DNA of 29,506 bases, from assembly GCA_019358935.1 (NCBI GenBank), contig JAHHIK010000098.1, forward strand, positions 1 to 29,506, given 5' to 3'. Positions 8,319 through 28,465 of this stretch are shown in pieces (the stretch's first letter is position 1; every line of letters starts with the position of its first letter). A program made the translations under genes and the position numbers. The notes under the pieces are model-generated. The model saw only the letters and a program-made list of their open reading frames with translations, made no database searches and was not told where the DNA came from. This stretch comes from Tolypothrix carrinoi HA7290-LM1 (GTDB lineage Bacteria > Cyanobacteriota > Cyanobacteriia > Cyanobacteriales > Nostocaceae).

Positions 8319-8386
8319 CAGGACTTACGCACTCGTCATGAAAGAATGAACCGCAGAGGACGCAGAGAACGCAGAGAAATAAGAGA
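8319..8386. repeat. MITE-like repeat (CAGGACTTACGC end, CGCAGAG 9-mer core), partial copy
   Basis: Same family as 14668-14762 and 22575-22668, with the core in the opposite orientation. Confidence 0.7.
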
Positions 8387-14667: not shown

Positions 14668-14762
14668 CAGGACTTACGCTGTTAGACCTCTCAAACCCTT
14701 ATTCCTCTGTTTCCTCTGCGTTCTCTGCGGTTCGTTTTTCCGTTATTGCTGTACAAGTCCTA
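14668..14762. repeat. MITE-like repeat with imperfect terminal inverted repeats
   Basis: CAGGACTTACG...CAAGTCCTA with internal CTCTGCG-type 9-mers. Confidence 0.75.
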
Positions 14763-18855: not shown

Positions 18856-19402
18856 AAGTCCTAAAGCAGATGGTGCAGAACTTACTCTTAATCAGCATTT
18901 AATTGATACTGATAACGCAGCACAGGCTATTTTCAGAGGAAGAATTTTAGATAACTGGTGTCGATTTTTTAAAGTTAAGGATGCTAGTAAATTTTTATAT
19001 CATTTACGAATAGCATCGCTTTTTCATGATATTGGCAAAGCAAATTCAGAGTTTTTAACAGGACTGAAAAGCAAGAAATACAAACAAAGTTTACGTCATG
19101 AATGGTTGAGTGCAATGATTTTGCATTTACCAAGCGTGAGGAAGTGGTTAGAGCCAAGTAAACTAGATTTGGAAGTTATTACGGCGGCTGTAAATTCTCA
19201 TCACCTCAAATCTCATCCAAAATGTTGGGGGATACCAAGAACACTTGTAAAGGAGTTTGAACTTTACATTAAAGAACCAGAAGTTATTAATATTCTGGAG
19301 AAAATAGGAAAAATTGCCGATGTTAATGGACTTCCAGAATTACCAGAGAGTTGGGTTGCAAGTGATAGGTTTTGGCAGCAAGTTTATCAACTTGACTTAT
19401 AA
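18827..19402 (+). pseudogene. cas3: Cas3 N-terminal HD nuclease fragment; helicase deleted
   Basis: RBS GAGGT plus GTG at 18827; LLAKS..TLNQHLIDT, LFHDIGKAN, RHEWLS, SHH; no helicase motifs. Confidence 0.88.
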
Positions 19403-20831
19403 AGCTTTTGCGGAAGAAAGATATACGGAGAAAAGGATAAACAATTATGACCGGGAAGAAACAGTTGAACTAACTGACAAAAATGGTAAAACTAAACAGG
19501 TTCAACGTTACTACTATACTGTTACAGTTCCAGAAGGTGCGTTTTTACCTGATTGGGATAAATCTAATGATGACCCGAATCATGGTATTTGGGTTAAATT
19601 ATGGCGGGATATGTTGTGGCAAATTGTTCGAGGTGTTCCAGCAACGCGCAACCCTTTTAATTTTCGAGTAAATGGTGCATCGTATTCACAAGATGTAGAA
19701 GCAATTTGGGCAGCATTACAACAGCCAGAAAAAATAATCGGACAGTCGGGTAATTATTACTTGGGTGCAACGGCAATAAATCCTGAAAATATACCAGTAA
19801 AAGATAAGGCAATATATCAATTTCTCTTACATTTTTGGGTTTTTGTCACGCAAGTGTATTCTCCCACAATTCTTGATAAAGATGGTCTGCGCGAGTTTGC
19901 TGGTTATGCTCTCGCAATTCCGGATGTCGCAAATCTGCGTAGATTTTGTAGTATTTTTCAGCAGGTACTAGCAGCACGCGAATCAGATAAATGGCGGCAT
20001 CTTCCACGGGAAGCTATTATTGATTTACCCGAAGAAGGTGCATTAGACCTACTATTACTTTTAGAAGACCGCATTAAACGTGAAATTGGCGGTCAACAAT
20101 TACGGCGTTTAATTTTAGGAATTGAACTCATCCATGCCGAAAAAGTAGGTAATAATATTAAAATTCGCTCGGTTAGTTATGTGGAACCAGTTACAAAACT
20201 AATTGATGATTACCGCACAATTAAAAAAATGTACTGGTGTCCTTGGTTCCGCAAGCAGCGATTAATTAATTTATTAAAGAATAAATCAGAGTCAGATGAG
20301 CAAGAAAATAATTTACCCCAGATTCAGCCGTGGAGTGATTTTGATGCTGTTTTAAGCCGGATTCCTCGAAAGTGGTTGCAAGACTCGTTATTTAGACATG
20401 ATGCTCGTGAATTCTTTAAACATGAAGTAAAAATTGATATGAAAAAAGAAATTCGTGATGATGCAAGAATTATTTATGATGTTTGCCAGCATTATGTTTT
20501 GAGTAAACTGGAATCAAAGTATGATTTGAAATGGGATAAATGCAAAGGTAATCCGAAAAAAGAAGAAGAGTAGAACGAAAAAAAATATAAGATTGCTAAT
20601 GAAGCATTTTTAGCAGTGCGATCGCGAACCGAAAAACAGGCTTTTATAGATTATTTTGTATCTACTCTCTACCCCTTTGTAAAAGAAAATGAATTCGTTG
20701 AATTTGCTAATACACTATTTAACAAATTTGATGAAATTCGTCCGCTAACACTTTTAGCGCTTTCCAGTCAGTATCCTCTAAACAAAAAGCCTGACGATAA
20801 AAGTTCTGAAACTACAGTAGAAGCAACATAA
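19392..20831 (+). pseudogene. cas8: Cas8 (Cmx8/Cas8a1-like, I-MYXAN) lacking its N-terminus, with an internal amber stop at 20571-20573
   Basis: P.GAFL, W.KLWRDMLWQI.RGVPATR.PF, QFLLHFW, GYALAIPDV. The frame continues through the TAG (EEE*NEKKYKIANEAFLAVRSRT..FIDYF..LTLLALS). Confidence 0.88.
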
Positions 20832-20886
20832 CCAAAAATTACCTTTGATTGCCTTTAGGCGTATAGTTGTTAAAAGGAAAATCGCC

Positions 20887-21807
20887 ATGAAAAAGAATTT
20901 GAATTTATTTGCCACAGTTTTGACTTATCCTGCACCATCAAGTAACTATCGGGGTGAATCTGAAGAAAATCGCACAGTTTTGCAAAAAATTTCCAAAAAT
21001 GGTCAAAAGTATGCTGTAGTTAGTCCGGAATCGTTGCGAAATGCATTGCGAGAAACTTTGATTTTAATGGAACAACCGCATAACCGCACGCGGATACATG
21101 ATGCAGACCAATTAGCTGTAGAATTTAAAGAATTTCCCAACGCTAGCAAGTATGCAGATGATTACTTGTTTGGCTTCATGGTGGCAAAACCAGAAGACGC
21201 AAAGAAAAATAAACCTTTACCACCAAAACGAGACAGCATTTTTCGCTGCAATATGGCAGTTGCATTAAGTCCTTACAAATATGATGCGGTGTTTCATCAA
21301 TCACCACTGAATGCCAAAACTAAAAATAATGAAAAGACCTATTGGAATAATGCCGGCACATCAGCACTGTTGCACCGTGAAGTCACGCATACCGCATTTC
21401 AGTATCCTTTTGCCTTATCTGGAAGGGATTGTCAGCAACATCCAGAATGGGTGCGGACATTATTGCAAGCGATCGCTCAACTTAATCGGGTTGCAGGTGG
21501 TCATGCTCGTGCTTATTATGAATTTGCACCCCGCTCTGTAGTAGCAAGGCTTACACCTAAGCTTGTGGCTGGTTACAACACTTATGGATTTAATGATGAT
21601 GGTGATTTCCCTGAGTTACTGCAAAGATTAGGGAAAGCCAACACAGAAAACTGTGACCTACCAGGAAATGAATTTTGGTTGGGTGGAGAAATCGTCCGCA
21701 ATTTAAATGAAGACACGAAAAAACGCTTGGAAGATGCGGGAGTAAATCTTTATGCTAACCCTGAGCATTTATTTGATGCATTGGCTAACCAGTTTTTAGA
21801 AGGTTGA
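20887..21807 (+). CDS. cas7: Cas7 / DevR backbone subunit
   Basis: SNYRGESEENRTVLQK, SPESLRNALRE, FHQSP, LLHREVTHTAFQYPF, VAGGHAR; RBS AAAGGA before ATG 20887. Confidence 0.93.
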   Translation: MKKNLNLFATVLTYPAPSSNYRGESEENRTVLQKISKNGQKYAVVSPESLRNALRETLILMEQPHNRTRIHDADQLAVEFKEFPNASKYADDYLFGFMVAKPEDAKKNKPLPPKRDSIFRCNMAVALSPYKYDAVFHQSPLNAKTKNNEKTYWNNAGTSALLHREVTHTAFQYPFALSGRDCQQHPEWVRTLLQAIAQLNRVAGGHARAYYEFAPRSVVARLTPKLVAGYNTYGFNDDGDFPELLQRLGKANTENCDLPGNEFWLGGEIVRNLNEDTKKRLEDAGVNLYANPEHLFDALANQFLEG

Positions 21808-21811
21808 GAGC

Positions 21812-22570
21812 ATGGCTAATCCTCATTCAGAATTAGTTGAGCTATTTTTACATCTGAAAGCACCATTTGCTGCATTTCGACCCTTTCAATCTGGTTCTTA
21901 TCGTTCGACAACAGCAGTACCATCACCTTCAACTGTGTATGGCTTAATACTCAATTTAGCCGGGATTGAACAGCGGAAAGAATTAGCTGCTCCTGTGACG
22001 CTTATCAAAGAAGATTTGCCAGAAATAGAAATTGCAATCGGGCAAGTTTCCCAGCCAGAAATAGCATTTCTTTCTCAGCAATTACATCAATATCCAGTCG
22101 GTGCATCCGGTGCAGAATTGGCGCAAAAGACATACGGTGCAAAGTATTGGATAGCTCCAGTGCGACGAGCAGTGTTAGTGAATCTAGATTTAATTGTGGG
22201 TGTACGGGCAGAAAAATGGTTGTGCGATCGCCTCGATTGGGTTCGGGTTCCAGACCTGACATATGTATCCTACAATCGTCTTGCTGTGGATTGGTTTGCA
22301 GATGAGGCTTGTCCTGTAATACCCGAATTAGCCATCGAAATTATTTCCCCTGGTCAAACTTTTGGCGAGATGACCGAAAAAGCAACTAACTATCTTAAAG
22401 CTGGTGTCTCTCGTGTTTGGGTTGTGGATACTAAAGCCAAGACTATCACGATTTTCTATCCCGATGCCCCACCTCAAACCAAACGAGGTGAAGATTCTTT
22501 AGAAGATTCGCTGTTTGAAAAGTTGCAAATTACACCCCAAGCAATCTTTCAACAAGCAGGAATTCCTTAA
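21812..22570 (+). CDS. cas5: Chimeric ORF: Cas5/DevS N-terminal ~140 aa fused in frame to the C-terminal part of a Uma2 endonuclease
   Basis: APFAAFRPFQSGSYRST..PSPSTVYGLILNLAG, QQLH.YPVG, K..IAPVRR (Cas5), then VPDLTYV..PELAIEIISP..KATNYLKAGVSRVWVVD (Uma2); junction at HIP1 22224-22231. Confidence 0.85.
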   Translation: MANPHSELVELFLHLKAPFAAFRPFQSGSYRSTTAVPSPSTVYGLILNLAGIEQRKELAAPVTLIKEDLPEIEIAIGQVSQPEIAFLSQQLHQYPVGASGAELAQKTYGAKYWIAPVRRAVLVNLDLIVGVRAEKWLCDRLDWVRVPDLTYVSYNRLAVDWFADEACPVIPELAIEIISPGQTFGEMTEKATNYLKAGVSRVWVVDTKAKTITIFYPDAPPQTKRGEDSLEDSLFEKLQITPQAIFQQAGIP

Positions 22571-22574
22571 AATA

Positions 22575-22668
22575 CAGGACTTACGCAAAAATTCTCTCTC
22601 TTCCTCATTCCTCTGTGAACTCTGCGTTCTCTGCGGTTCGTTTTTCCATGACAAGTGCGTAAGTCCTA
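22575..22668. repeat. MITE-like repeat with terminal inverted repeats
   Basis: CAGGACTTACGCA...TGCGTAAGTCCTA. Confidence 0.8.
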
Positions 22669-22706: not shown

Positions 22707-22721
22707 ACAACTTCACTCTAG

Positions 22722-22922
22722 TTACTCCGTTCTCTTGTCCCGTTGAGTTGGATCTACTAAGTTGGCTTTTTTAACTTCTGGCTCGTAACCGCAGTTAACG
22801 CAGTGGAACAAGCGAACCCGCACTTCTTCTAAGTTGGCACGTAAGATCCAATACGGGAATAGTCCGTAAGCGTTACAGCCACAATTAGGGCAAGTGGAAA
22901 AAGAATCGTTTCTGTTAGTCAC
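22722..22922 (-). CDS. Small zinc-ribbon protein
   Basis: CPNC..CVNC; GTG start overlaps the recombinase stop (GTGA). Confidence 0.6.
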   Translation of the reverse strand: MTNRNDSFSTCPNCGCNAYGLFPYWILRANLEEVRVRLFHCVNCGYEPEVKKANLVDPTQRDKRTE

Positions 22923-24119
22923 TGTACAATTGCTTTTACCAATTCCTTAAATAGTAACTTTGCAGCTTTGGCACTAATGCGCGATCGCACTAATCGAACC
23001 GGACGACCGGCAGTTTTTTCAGCATCCAACTGAGAACCCAGAATTGCACCAATCTCATTATCAAGGCGGCAGCGCTTAACCTCGATGCGGGTGAAAACCC
23101 ATTGCCAGAAAGCAATACGGCACAAATCAGAACCACCGACAATTTTAATTTTAGTTTTATCGCCTGATGCTTCTAGGGAAGGTGCAAGCCCCAAGGACTT
23201 CTGAAAGCGGCGTAGTGACAGGTAGCGTTTTGTGGGCTTTCCAGACTTTCGACCCTTGCTAATTCTTACCTCTGGCTTACCGTCAGCACCAAAGTAATTT
23301 TCTAACGGGTAAATTTGACTGAGGATAATTGCCTCTAATCGCAACCCGAAACCAAAGGTTTTAAATACCTGGCGATAAGCCGTAAATTTCGGAGCGGTCA
23401 AAAGCTGCTGTAGTTCGACCTCAATACTGTGTTCTTCTCGCTGTAAGTCACATAAACGTCTTGCGTGATGCCGAACTGTTTCAGTAATGTCCAATCCAGC
23501 AGAGCGATCTAATATCGCGTCGTATCGTTTGATGAATGCGTTCCCCACACAACCACCCCCACAATAAGGGCACGTCACCATCAATTGCCCGTCGAGAATT
23601 TACGTGTGCGACTTCTGGGAATTGCCAAGCTAAGTCTTGACGCAAACGATTGATAATTGGCGATTGCACCCGGTTGAGGTGAGCAAGTCGCAACACCAAT
23701 TCTCTAATGCGGGTTGTGGTGAAATCGCGAATTTGTACAAAGCGCCTGGGGGAATCGAAATAGTCAAAGTAGTAACAGGCGAGTGCTAGTGCGTCGGCAT
23801 CGTCATCTTTGTCGGGCAGACTTAATTGGTGTTCCCGGTAATTTCTCAACTCTTTGTGTCCCACAAGTCTGACCTCGACCCCGGTACGAGCCAAGTGTGT
23901 TCCCCAAAGTTTTGAGTAATTTACACCAGTCGGCTCCATGAGTGCAATATCAGGATGCAGCGCCAGCAGTGCTTTTATTCCCTCGCTGTTGGCGCTAAAC
24001 GACATGAACGGACATTCATAGTAAAATTGACGAGGATCGCTTGGCTTGCTTTCGAGCAAGCACGCTCTAACTGAGGACTTGCTAATATCAAGCCCCAAAA
24101 TTCTTTTATTCTCTTGCAT
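22919..24119 (-). pseudogene. IS110-family (DEDD RuvC + Ser-containing Tnp domain) recombinase, single frameshift near 23530-23545
   Basis: GLDISK, MEPTG, KDDDADA (DEDD), NRLRQDLAWQFPE coiled coil; second frame has FGFGL and LGLAPSLEASG (catalytic-Ser motif). Confidence 0.88.
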
Positions 24120-24155
24120 TGGGTGTGGTTGTTGGTTATTAACCCCGTATAAAAA

Positions 24156-24352
24156 GCCTGCGAATCACCCAAAAGCACGTAGCCTAACTCACTCTTAAGG
24201 CTGCGTCAAAACGGGACCTTGACGCTACGAGGCAAGCTGTAGAAAGTGCAGTAACCGAGCTTGTGAAAAGGTAAAAGCAGTAATGCTTGATTCGTCCTGA
24301 AAGCCCTAAGTTGCTGCACTGTTTACAGGCGAATGATTTGGACTCGATCCGC
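24156..24352 (-). ncRNA. Structured ncRNA upstream of the IS110 recombinase, bridge-RNA-like
   Basis: Minus-strand stems AGTGCAGCAAC/GTTACTGCACT, GGGCTT/AAGCTC, AAGC/GCTT enclosing a 12x12 internal loop; CGTAGC/GCTACG, GCGTCAA/TTGACGC; closing AATCATTC/GGGTGATT. Confidence 0.65.
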
Positions 24353-24412
24353 GACTCCCCAGTGTGGGGAGTTTCGCCGGTGAGTTAGTCCGGCTCGTCA
24401 GGCCTAAAAATC
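24335..24412 (-). ncRNA. Hammerhead ribozyme (type I topology)
   Basis: CUGACGA (24401-24395), stem II GCCGG/CCGGC, GAAA (24375-24372), stem III CUCCCC/GGGGAG, GUC cleavage triplet (24355-24353); stem I is 2 bp plus an internal loop plus GAUUU/AAAUC. Confidence 0.88.
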
Positions 24413-24808
24413 GTCATCATCGTCATCATCGTCATCGTCATCGTCATCCTCTTCTGTGATGACCTCGGACTGTACAGTTACAGCAGTTAGCAAGTTCCGA
24501 AACTGAGGCATTGATGGCGCTTCTGGGTTTAGTCCTTGGGCTTTTAAGAAGTCGGCTGTCGCGTCCCACTCCTTACGTAGCTTGTCTAATTTTTCTTCTA
24601 AACGTTCGCATTCGCGGGCATGTTTTCTTGCATTGTCGTAAAATTCCTGTGCTGTTGGTCCGACGATGCTTTTTGCTTTTTCTCTCAATCGGACGACCAC
24701 AGATTCAACTGTTTCTTTTTCATCCAATTCAACAGAAAAACCGATTCTTTCGTTGTTGTAGCTACCAGTTGAAATTAGAAAATGTGCGTGTAGGCGTTTA
24801 ATTTTCAT
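24404..24808 (-). CDS. Hypothetical coiled-coil protein with poly-Asp C-terminal tail
   Basis: ATG at 24808 (MKIKRLHAHF..); the upstream extension in the ORF track overlaps the ATPase gene and a structured spacer. Confidence 0.7.
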   Translation of the reverse strand: MKIKRLHAHFLISTGSYNNERIGFSVELDEKETVESVVVRLREKAKSIVGPTAQEFYDNARKHARECERLEEKLDKLRKEWDATADFLKAQGLNPEAPSMPQFRNLLTAVTVQSEVITEEDDDDDDDDDDDDDF

Positions 24809-27822: not shown

Positions 27823-27967
27823 CGCTAGATTCTGGTACTGCTTGTTGGGCTTCAAGTTCTGGCTCTTCTTCGTAGCATTTAGGGTTGCAAGCCTCCTGTA
27901 TGTGACCAATCTCTTGGAGATAACAAATATCGCATTCAAAGCAAATTCCCTTGGAGCTACTCATCAT
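27791..27967 (-). CDS. Small Cys-rich protein, 58 aa (not in ORF track)
   Basis: MMSSSKGICFECDICYLQEIGHIQEACNPKCYEEEPE..; GAGGA immediately upstream. Confidence 0.45.
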   Translation of the reverse strand: MMSSSKGICFECDICYLQEIGHIQEACNPKCYEEEPELEAQQAVPESSDEQPRTNKNA

Positions 27968-28164
27968 TCCTCAAGTTGGTTGGGTTGTTGGGGCGCAAAT
28001 CTCACTCGTTCAACTGCTAGCAGGTCTTTTACTTGCACTACTTGGCTTGCAGGCTGCTATCTCTGCTTGGTTTGCAGTTGGGGGAGTGTGGTAATGAAAA
28101 ATTAAATAAGGGCAGGCATCTTCACGGCGTCACTGTTTTGATGCCTGTTTTTTAGTTCCATCTG

Positions 28165-28213
28165 CTAGGCAATATAACTAGTATTTTTACTAGGAAATTT
28201 GCTTAGTTATAAT
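28165..28213. promoter_or_regulatory. Divergent promoter/operator region
   Basis: CTAG at 28165, 28178, 28190 and TTAG at 28203 (12-13 nt period); CTAGTA-TTTT-TACTAG palindrome; TATAAT at 28208-28213. Confidence 0.55.
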
Positions 28214-28216
28214 GCT

Positions 28217-28465
28217 ATGGTAAGAAAGAGAAAGAGTCAACCCCATTTACCTGAGGAAAACGTGGTGCCGCTAAAGGCTTTGCGTGAGGAGCTTAACATG
28301 ACCCAAGCTGAGTTTGCTGTAACTATCGGCATTGATCCATCTACGGTAAGCCGTTGCGAAAGAGGGATTGCCGAGCCAACTTTTACAGTCTTACAAATGA
28401 AGAAGCTGTGCAAGCTCACTGGGAAAGATGTTTTGGATTTTCCCGATCACCTAGGTAAATCCTAA
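28217..28465 (+). CDS. XRE-family HTH transcriptional regulator
   Basis: LKALREELNMTQAEFAVTIGIDPSTVSRCERGIAEP. Confidence 0.92.
   Translation: MVRKRKSQPHLPEENVVPLKALREELNMTQAEFAVTIGIDPSTVSRCERGIAEPTFTVLQMKKLCKLTGKDVLDFPDHLGKS

Follow-up and report, generated by a model that had tools for sequence, protein, structure and literature searches.

The core of IS621, the closest described bridge-RNA element, is CT, and, to our knowledge, the role of most bacterial hammerhead ribozymes is not known. In the part of the IS621 article available to us, the core is given as a dinucleotide, and the promoter for the bridge RNA is rebuilt at the junction of right and left ends on the excised circle (Durrant et al. 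2024, PMC11208160). Here we describe a locus of the cyanobacterium Tolypothrix carrinoi HA7290-LM1 in which a hammerhead motif, a bridge-like RNA and an IS110-family recombinase gene follow one another directly behind an operon. The window, i.e. the whole stretch of DNA that was analysed, is the entire contig JAHHIK010000098.1 (29,506 nucleotides) of a 7.96-Mb assembly (GCA_019358935.1), and all coordinates of the module formed by motif, RNA and recombinase gene refer to its minus strand. From sequence comparison we consider it likely that the locus encodes an operon-embedded bridge RNA, released by the hammerhead, within an IS110-driven element of 8–19 kb.

The sequence-only reading of this locus had described a hammerhead, its cut position, its spacing to the preceding stop codon, an RNA, a recombinase and an overlap between the recombinase stop and the following start codon, and all of these were found at the positions it had given when the sequence was read again. 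The core of the motif begins 2 nt past the stop codon at 24406-24404, and the sequence here reads C-CUGACGA-G-CCGG-[ACUAACUCA]-CCGG-C-GAA-A-CUCCCC-[ACACU]-GGGGAG-U-C on the minus strand. Stem I is formed by GC at 24403-24402 with the GC of GCGG at 24352-24349 and has 2 base pairs (bp) here, compared with 3–4 bp in most relatives. It is followed by the core CUGACGA (24401-24395), stem II (G-CCGG / CCGG-C, 24394-24376), GAA (24375-24373), stem III (A-CUCCCC / GGGGAG-U, 24372-24354) and C17 at 24353. None of the hammerhead consensus positions is missing: C3-A9 and G12-A14 are there, A15.1 pairs with U16.1, and position 17 is a C. Loops cap stems II and III, and stem I stays open, an arrangement that corresponds to the type I topology; the minimum-energy fold contains stems II and III (z = -2.35). 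Loop II (ACUC, 24385-24382) is able to pair with GAGU at 24345-24342. Cleavage is predicted between C24353 and G24352; the 3′ product would start at G24352, and the structured RNA between the cut and the recombinase ATG (24119) measures 233 nt. Except for its scores against the curated Rfam models, the motif fits the definition of a hammerhead, for which cleavage is predicted.

The consensus of 17 aligned RNAs, obtained with RNAalifold, has a 5′ hairpin and, behind it, two stem-loops that contain internal loops. The frame of the target loop, TTAGGGCTT-[5-7 nt]-GAA-NCAAGC...GCTTT-[5-6 nt]-TTC-NNAAGCTC, is conserved and the two blocks that it encloses are hypervariable. The guides were read as in IS621, that is, the 5′ block with GAA as the left target, and the reverse complement of TTC with the 3′ block as the right target. 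Compared with the 5 bases past the right end ...CTAGAGT GAA, which recurs in other loci, the right guide matched perfectly in 8 of 13 loci, with a mean of 4.3 out of 5 positions. When each guide was instead paired with the flanks of other loci, the mean fell to 1.7 out of 5 and none of 154 pairings was perfect. The donor loop carries (G/A)AGAGT-GA(A/G) and GGGTGA-TTC. Its left guide covaries with the right terminus, which is accompanied by AGACT in three loci and GGAGT in one, and its right guide, GGGTGA-TTC, agrees with the left terminus GAA-TCCCCA apart from one mismatch or bulge. A conserved terminator was not found after the donor loop. By these comparisons the RNA 3′ of the predicted cut is a two-loop bridge RNA, the target loop of which specifies the chromosomal site (5–6 nt, GAA, 5 nt) and the donor loop of which specifies the junction of right terminus and left terminus (GAA-TCCCCAG...).

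The recombinase gene of the window is split into ORFs (open reading frames) 24119-23481 and 23584-22919. The former matches the Pfam family DEDD_Tnp_IS110 (PF01548) with 33.3 bits against a cut-off of 29, and the latter reaches 16.9 bits for Transposase_20 (PF02371), under the cut-off of 21.3. As had been noted from the sequence, this copy is frameshifted: comparison with the intact paralogue on contig C12 of the same genome (P0001, 399 aa) places a one-base shift just past codon 194, near 23537. The paralogue itself scores 31.5 bits for PF01548 and, again below the cut-off, up to 17.1 bits for PF02371. Across 10 recombinase relatives D11, E62, D106 and D109 of the N-terminal DEDD domain are invariant, and so are S318-G319. 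A recombinase profile matches the ISCro4 transposase (PDB 9t56) over residues 3-209 with E=7.2e-5; S318-G319 align with the ...ESGSS... of ISCro4 only in a non-significant second stretch of this match. A single recombinase sequence found no match in PDB, and ISCro4 was reached by the profile alone. Judged by the defining features in their sequences, recombinase and RNA belong to the IS110/bridge family, with compactness and promoter location as exceptions.

The unit that moves was read from the comparison of filled and empty sites. Two genomes of the genus are uninserted at the site that forms the right flank of the C127 copy and read ...TTTAATGAGTAGGAC GAA ACGGTTCACC... there. In the present genome the empty site of one relative (...GGAC GAA ACGGTTC...) is found in two parts, one at the end of contig C59 and one on contig C127, and each junction has GAA; the left half of the site is the one at the C59 end, where the same GAA is followed by TCCCCAGACTTC.... 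This comparison points to a single GAA-bounded insertion, with TCCCCAG at its start and the recombinase module at its end. The RNAs of C127 and of the window carry the target of this very site, with AGGAC-GAA as the left guide and the complement of GAA-AAGGT as the right guide. Similarly, left guide and GAA occur once upstream, with TCCCCAG directly after, in two other elements, one complete at 7.8 kb and one of at least 12.9 kb, and ahead of a second left terminus in the genome (C47) stands TCAGTG-GAA, which the C12 copy carries as its guide. We fetched up to 19.5 kb of upstream DNA for 20 more modules; five loci were too short, and five had RNAs that were not parsed by the pattern. Left guide, GAA and TCCCC were found 6.4–17.2 kb upstream of the target loop in 10 of the 12 loci with at least 6.9 kb, one of the ten left-guide matches having a single mismatch; the chance expectation for a given 14-mer in 19 kb is about 7e-5.

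Together, the guide-to-site matches and the GAA-bounded filled and empty sites indicate that the whole cargo-bearing element of about 8–19 kb moves, and not the 1.5-kb module. A compact organisation of 1.2–1.6 kb with one gene and a junction promoter beside the RNA was not found, as many ORFs lie between left terminus and RNA. It is probable that recombinase and bridge RNA act as the RNA-guided integrase of the element. The sequence-only reading had left it to empty and filled sites whether the gene alone or the whole element is mobile, and the answer is the whole element. Its proposal that the recombinase serves a larger element as integrase, with the guide RNA behind an operon, agrees with the guide matches and the empty-site comparison. 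It had also named multi-copy insertion sequence (IS) ends between ribozyme and RNA as the sign of an ordinary IS110 beside an unrelated ribozyme; there is no such end, the guides matching instead the right end and the distant left terminus. Instead of a domesticated recombinase, an IS110-type element with kilobases of cargo in its left arm describes the system better. The left terminus of the window copy was not found on the contig, which holds 5.2 kb upstream of the target loop. Given the distances seen in the relatives, this terminus would lie past the contig end, and what the window contains is probably a 6.8-kb right-hand portion of a large mobile element found in filamentous cyanobacteria.

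To follow the motif across relatives, the left-hand 311 bases of the module were searched in 200 genomes of the family; 39 matched, mostly starting exactly at 24403. Among 29 family loci from this search 23 keep CUGANGA, five of them with an extra U after A9. An alignment of 21 distinct sequences (A1) was collected with a simple descriptor, and its core columns are invariant. Stems II and III are 100% paired in A1, with double changes at 5/7 pairs of stem III and 2/5 pairs of stem II; we give these counts little weight because the descriptor itself requires both stems. Two features were not preselected: stem I (3–4 bp, CCGC/GCGG) is 87% paired, and 77.5% of the pairs are formed in the pseudoknot that joins loop II to bases 8-12 of the 3′ product; one of these pairs is U-A in nine sequences, C-G in seven and A-U in one.

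A covariance model (R1) derived from 21 relatives gives the window copy 82.3 bits and loci outside the training set 60–90 bits. In the genome of the window it finds four sites, all ahead of recombinase modules, including the diverged module on C102. We also collected 51 loci by recombinase homology, from Tolypothrix, Scytonema, Nostoc, Hassallia, Pelatocladus, Plectonema and Calothrix records. R1 finds 33 sites in them, all on the strand of the gene and about 230–330 nt 5′ of the recombinase, and it matches 30 of the 33 loci that hold the recombinase N-terminus and enough upstream DNA. In this recombinase-selected set, the alignment of which is fitted to the model, 96% of pairs are formed, with double changes at 5/7 and 3/5 pairs. 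Two pairs of stem I are invariant, the third is formed in 33/33 and the fourth in 25/33 sequences. Finally, R1 also matches 12 out of 150 other cyanobacterial genomes that were sampled evenly over the phylum, three of these 12 belonging to other orders. Nine of the 11 loci fetched from this sample have an IS110-like ORF 220–300 nt downstream on the same strand, the recombinases being 31–74% identical to the C12 protein. The expectation that homologues keep the ribozyme was thus borne out in both directions of search.

These data lead us to the following scheme. The last genes of the element would be transcribed rightwards as an operon, with the bridge RNA as the tail of the transcript, because there is no room for a promoter between stop codon and motif and none on this strand over the ~500 nt upstream. 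In a scan of the minus strand from 24911 to the RNA no sigma-70-like promoter was found, the counts being near the shuffled expectation. An ORF of at least 50 codons ends at most 40 nt from the core in 20 of 24 loci, most often 4–5 nt before C3. Which ORF this is varies with the element lineage: in the window and in several genomes it codes for a protein with a poly-Asp tail, and on C127 and C102 for other small proteins. The ribozyme probably excises the guide from the long operon transcript. Cleavage after C24353 would free the bridge RNA with a 5′-OH at G24352, and the bases of stem I and of the pseudoknot would then refold into the 5′ hairpin of the RNA. As this hairpin wins in minimum-energy folds, the scheme suggests that cleavage must be co-transcriptional. 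Expression of guide and recombinase would follow an internal, repressor-controlled promoter and not, as in IS621, the formation of the circle. By-eye inspection found no complementarity through which the right terminus might complete stem I at the circle junction. A read search with the sequence of a relative (L063:2600-3100) returned four runs with a small share of words, mostly unrelated low-complexity matches coding for poly-Asp. The few metatranscriptome contigs from relatives have a depth of 2, and one of them spans the predicted cut site, which is uninformative either way.

Several observations weigh against this scheme. Stem I is short and missing from the minimum-energy folds, in which GCGG sits in the downstream hairpin. 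No Rfam hammerhead model matches at gathering thresholds in the whole window. In E-value mode (24050-24500) only chance-level matches appear, and the best of these, Hammerhead_II with 16.7 bits (E=1, cut-off 37), uses another, non-canonical permutation/box. The three remaining recombinase loci out of 33 are negative for R1 even with filters off. Only 19 of the 33 model matches in the recombinase-selected loci are canonical: in five, all from Nostoc records, 33–35 nt rich in palindromes are inserted between A9 and stem II, four carry a substitution at C3 or U4, four are without the CUGAUGA box and one is degenerate. The other six of the 29 family loci comprise two that read CUGAAUGA, three with a substituted core and one without a recognisable core. 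The pseudoknot complementarity of loop II is gone in C127, C12 and one relative, and the relative on C49 is without the 5′ half of the motif. Seven of nine box-less loci have an open recombinase frame of at least 370 aa, so that the ribozyme is not indispensable for keeping the gene open; it is repeatedly lost and not strictly essential in this respect. With regard to the guides, no left-guide match was found in 2 of the 12 loci with at least 6.9 kb upstream, and the right flank of the window, GTTGT, agrees with its own right guide target, AAGGT, at 2 of 5 positions.

The relation between the window and its paralogues bears on the simplest alternative, according to which the 1.48-kb stretch from hammerhead to recombinase stop would be an ordinary small IS110 that lands repeatedly behind a preferred site in larger elements. 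The C127 copy is 97% identical to the window across exactly 24403-22928, with the same frameshift and unrelated DNA on its left, and the similarity of many relatives starts at 24403, both as expected of such an IS. However, the guides misfit the bases next to the hammerhead and match both the chromosomal flanks around the whole element and a left terminus at a distance of 6–17 kb; the filled and empty sites show one GAA-bounded insertion, and the right terminus of the window lies past the Zn-ribbon ORF. The sharp 97% block is better read as an exchange of modules between elements, since the C12 copy, at 84% identity, resembles the window into both flanks and through the Zn-ribbon ORF. A module close to C127, flanks close to C12 and a guide that misfits the flank suggest that the window module may have been swapped between resident elements following insertion. 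We rejected the small-IS explanation, which the guide and empty-site tests contradict and which we hold to be hardly credible.

Two further explanations accept the element and differ in what the motif does. It might cleave in the service of mRNA management, splitting the cargo from the recombinase message for separate stability or translation; the cargo message would get a structured 3′ end, the recombinase message a 5′-OH, and the bridge RNA would not require an exact 5′ end. The position of the motif next to the stop of the last cargo ORF in most loci fits this, as do stems II and III, which would remain at the 3′ end of the upstream fragment, and the open recombinase frames of box-less loci. 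Set against it, in every aligned locus the cut coincides exactly with the base at which the conserved 5′ hairpin of the bridge RNA starts, and the pseudoknot links loop II to the first 12 nt of this RNA. We regard mRNA management as unlikely to be the whole explanation, and it and guide release are not mutually exclusive. Alternatively, the motif would not, or no longer, cleave and would be a conserved structured leader that, for instance, binds a protein or helps the bridge RNA precursor to fold. The short stem I, the lack of an Rfam model that accepts the motif and the 14 non-canonical matches out of 33 point this way, but the core nucleotides are all kept across recombinases as low as 31–36% identical while the stems change by compensatory substitutions. 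A fixed core within changing stems is the pattern expected of a catalytic core and is hard to explain otherwise, which makes a non-cleaving leader very improbable in our view. We thus favour release of the bridge RNA from the operon transcript. Taken further, the loci may represent a widespread family of 8–19-kb integrative elements, with a bridge recombinase as integrase and a guide that is reprogrammed in each copy and matured by a hammerhead from an operon transcript, a generalisation that we rate as about evenly balanced.

Table 1. Features of the element in the window, listed in the direction of the minus strand, followed by the cargo region upstream
Feature	Position	Strand	Details and basis
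Last cargo ORF of the operon	24404..24793	-	129 aa, poly-Asp C-terminal tail; stop TAG 24406-24404
Hammerhead motif, type I (predicted)	24349..24403	-	Sequence and covariance model R1
Bridge RNA (by comparison)	24151..24352	-	5′ hairpin, target-binding loop, donor-binding loop; then spacer to ATG 24119
Left target guide and core	24299-24291	-	CAGGAC-GAA
Right target guide and core	24272-24265	-	ACCTT-TTC
Left donor guide	24195-24188	-	AGAGT-GAG
Right donor guide	24170-24162	-	GGGTGA-TTC
IS110-family (bridge) recombinase gene	22919..24119	-	Pfam; split by a one-base frameshift
Small Zn-ribbon ORF	22722..22922	-	66 aa, CxxC...CxxC; GTG start overlaps recombinase stop TGA 22921-22919
Right terminus and core	22712..22721	-	CTAGAGT 22721-22715, GAA 22714-22712; flank GTTGTAATTT next
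Cargo to contig end	24794..29506	.	ORFs, Pfam, PHROGs

The window copy is a decayed and mosaic member of its group and is probably inert, since its gene is frameshifted and its stem I is down to 2 bp. The copy on C49 (79% identical) begins only within stem III and is multiply broken, and several further contigs of the genome hold right-end fragments of the element. Short derivatives of 1.3–3.9 kb with left-arm and right-end sequence and most of the interior missing were seen at C21:45871-47546, C145:5098-6420 and C55:50105-54014; they may be decayed or non-autonomous copies. The chromosomal site used by the C127 copy corresponds to L051, a relative's contig, at about 590-860, where a genome of the same genus holds a scar only. 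This scar, which looks like the remnant of an internal deletion, consists of 8 bases from the start of the hammerhead region (CGCCTGAC) fused to the last 15 of the right end (ATTATCTAGAGTGAA), with unrelated DNA on the left.

Variants of the motif recur as sub-families. The extra U (CUGAUGA-U-GGCU...) is found at L029, L031, L034, L035 and L038 and the reading CUGAAUGA at L017 and L019, each in more than one genome. The insertion at L070, L071, L074, L079 and L104 contains GCGATCGC palindromes, and it accompanies recombinases as different as those with 36% and with 75% identity to the C12 protein.

The right terminus lies past the Zn-ribbon ORF, which places this ORF inside the element. Only weak matches below the cut-off were obtained for it in Pfam (Cas12f1-like TNB, Zn_ribbon_IS1595), and tblastn against 124 loci and the own genome located it in just two copies, C98 and C12, both of them in this genome. 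The Zn-ribbon gene had been taken for a constant part of the system; this did not hold, and the ORF is optional within the right end. ORFs with CxxC motifs occupy the same slot, from recombinase stop to right terminus, in two other genomes and less clearly in a third. The slot ORFs of L011, L013 and L016 are not related to the window ORF by BLAST, and two of them share C-x2-C-G-C ... aromatic-P-Y ... C-V-x-C. The CxxC ORF of this slot may be a fast-evolving accessory protein.

Upstream of the module, the last cargo ORF matched no Pfam or PHROG family. The minus-strand operon at 27939-24912 includes an ORF for an AAA ATPase (26072-24912), for which a protein-atlas look-up gives a HerA/FtsK-like relationship as a lead only. 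The divergent plus-strand genes include an XRE-type helix-turn-helix gene (28199-28465), which the switch region at about 27967-28199 adjoins. Complete elements likewise consist of two divergent gene blocks, and the module ends the rightward one. With Pfam and PHROGs nearly all cargo ORFs remained without a name; the nameable ones encode the HerA/FtsK-like ATPase (again as a lead), a 193-aa tyrosine recombinase and a collagen-repeat protein. The tyrosine recombinase (PF00589, E=2e-16 to 3e-18) is a conserved cargo protein of complete elements, present at L135:5709-6287 and L131:5615-6193, with a fragment at L060:4330-4704, and could be a multimer resolvase for the circular form or a second integrase. 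Taking the XRE-type switch, the HerA/FtsK-like ATPase and the collagen-repeat protein as leads, the elements are possibly small temperate viruses or integrative plasmids.

Just beyond the right flank of the element, at 22600-22668, lies a sequence of about 65–70 nt whose ends are inverted (AGGACTTACGCA...TGCGTAAGTCCT). With about 30 related copies in the genome, two of them elsewhere in the window near 8320-8383 and 14697-14741, it resembles a miniature repeat. A type I-B cas row occupies 19314-22570, with Cas8b at 19314-20573 and a 320-aa ORF at 20845-21807, which we took for Cas7. The last ORF of the row (21812-22570) is chimeric, residues 11-86 resembling Cas5d and residues 141-241 a Uma2-family endonuclease, and the cas operon appears truncated beside the insertion site of the element.

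In the portions of the literature accessible to us, we found no description of a natural ribozyme ahead of a bridge RNA or of natural IS110-type elements of several kilobases. A 2026 preprint, in the part available, reports an unplaced divergent cluster of hammerheads with 152 loci under the Rfam cut-offs, which may be the present motif. The available part of the same preprint restricts its search for IS110 borders to 1 kb either side of the gene. Such a search would not delimit these elements, and this may be why they went unnoticed. If the proposed reading is true, it would give the first natural example of an RNA-guided recombinase whose guide RNA is processed by a ribozyme, and a bacterial hammerhead would have a concrete job, as the class found here has a fixed partner and an obvious task. 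The loci also show natural bridge recombinases moving 6–17 kb of cargo with guides that are reprogrammed from copy to copy, which is relevant to genome engineering.

Among known systems with a ribozyme in a mobile element, the R2 retrotransposon uses a 5′ ribozyme resembling that of hepatitis delta virus (HDV) to free the 5′ end of a functional RNA from a longer co-transcript. R2 differs in being a eukaryotic retroelement with another ribozyme class, and its freed RNA is mRNA and template, not a guide. IStrons reportedly combine a group I intron and a TnpB guide RNA in one transposon. They resemble the present elements in having ribozyme and guide RNA in one transposon transcript, but their self-splicing intron removes the element from the host mRNA and their effector is a nuclease and not a recombinase. 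Guide RNAs flanked by ribozymes have also been engineered, as in hammerhead-guide RNA (gRNA)-HDV cassettes. In these, too, a ribozyme sets the end of a guide within a longer transcript, although the cassettes are synthetic, whereas here a natural ribozyme would do so on the 5′ side. Plasmids for IS621, in the part of the article available to us, have an HDV ribozyme engineered behind the bridge RNA (PMC11208160).

With type I hammerheads (RF00163, CL00010) the motif shares the core C3-U4-G5-A6-N7-G8-A9, G12-A13-A14, A15.1-U16.1 and H17, closed helices II and III with an open helix I, and the contact of loop II with the stem I side. It differs from the Rfam hammerheads in a stem I of 3–4 bp, in a Watson-Crick pseudoknot of 4–5 bp to bases 8-12 of the 3′ product, in that no model reaches the gathering score, and in the extra U after A9 or the CUGAAUGA of some sub-lineages.

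The closest comparison is with IS621 and the IS110 family, as described in the available parts of the sources. Common to both are an N-terminal DEDD domain of the RuvC-like type, possibly a C-terminal domain marked by a conserved Ser-Gly (PMC11208160; PDB 9t56), an RNA 5′ of the gene with two internal loops, in which the left guide has the sense of the top strand, the right guide is complementary and both contain the core, and the repetition of the core at both borders of the element. The Transposase_20 match of the present recombinases stays below the Pfam cut-off, unlike in IS110. The elements described here measure about 8–19 kb, with genes between left terminus and RNA, compared with about 1.5 kb for IS621; their guides have an invariant GAA/TTC core in place of a dinucleotide; and the RNA lies behind an operon and a hammerhead, away from the end junction at which IS621 rebuilds its promoter. 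If the proposed reading is true, they would add a second expression logic to that of IS621, one that ties recombination to the regulatory switch of the element.

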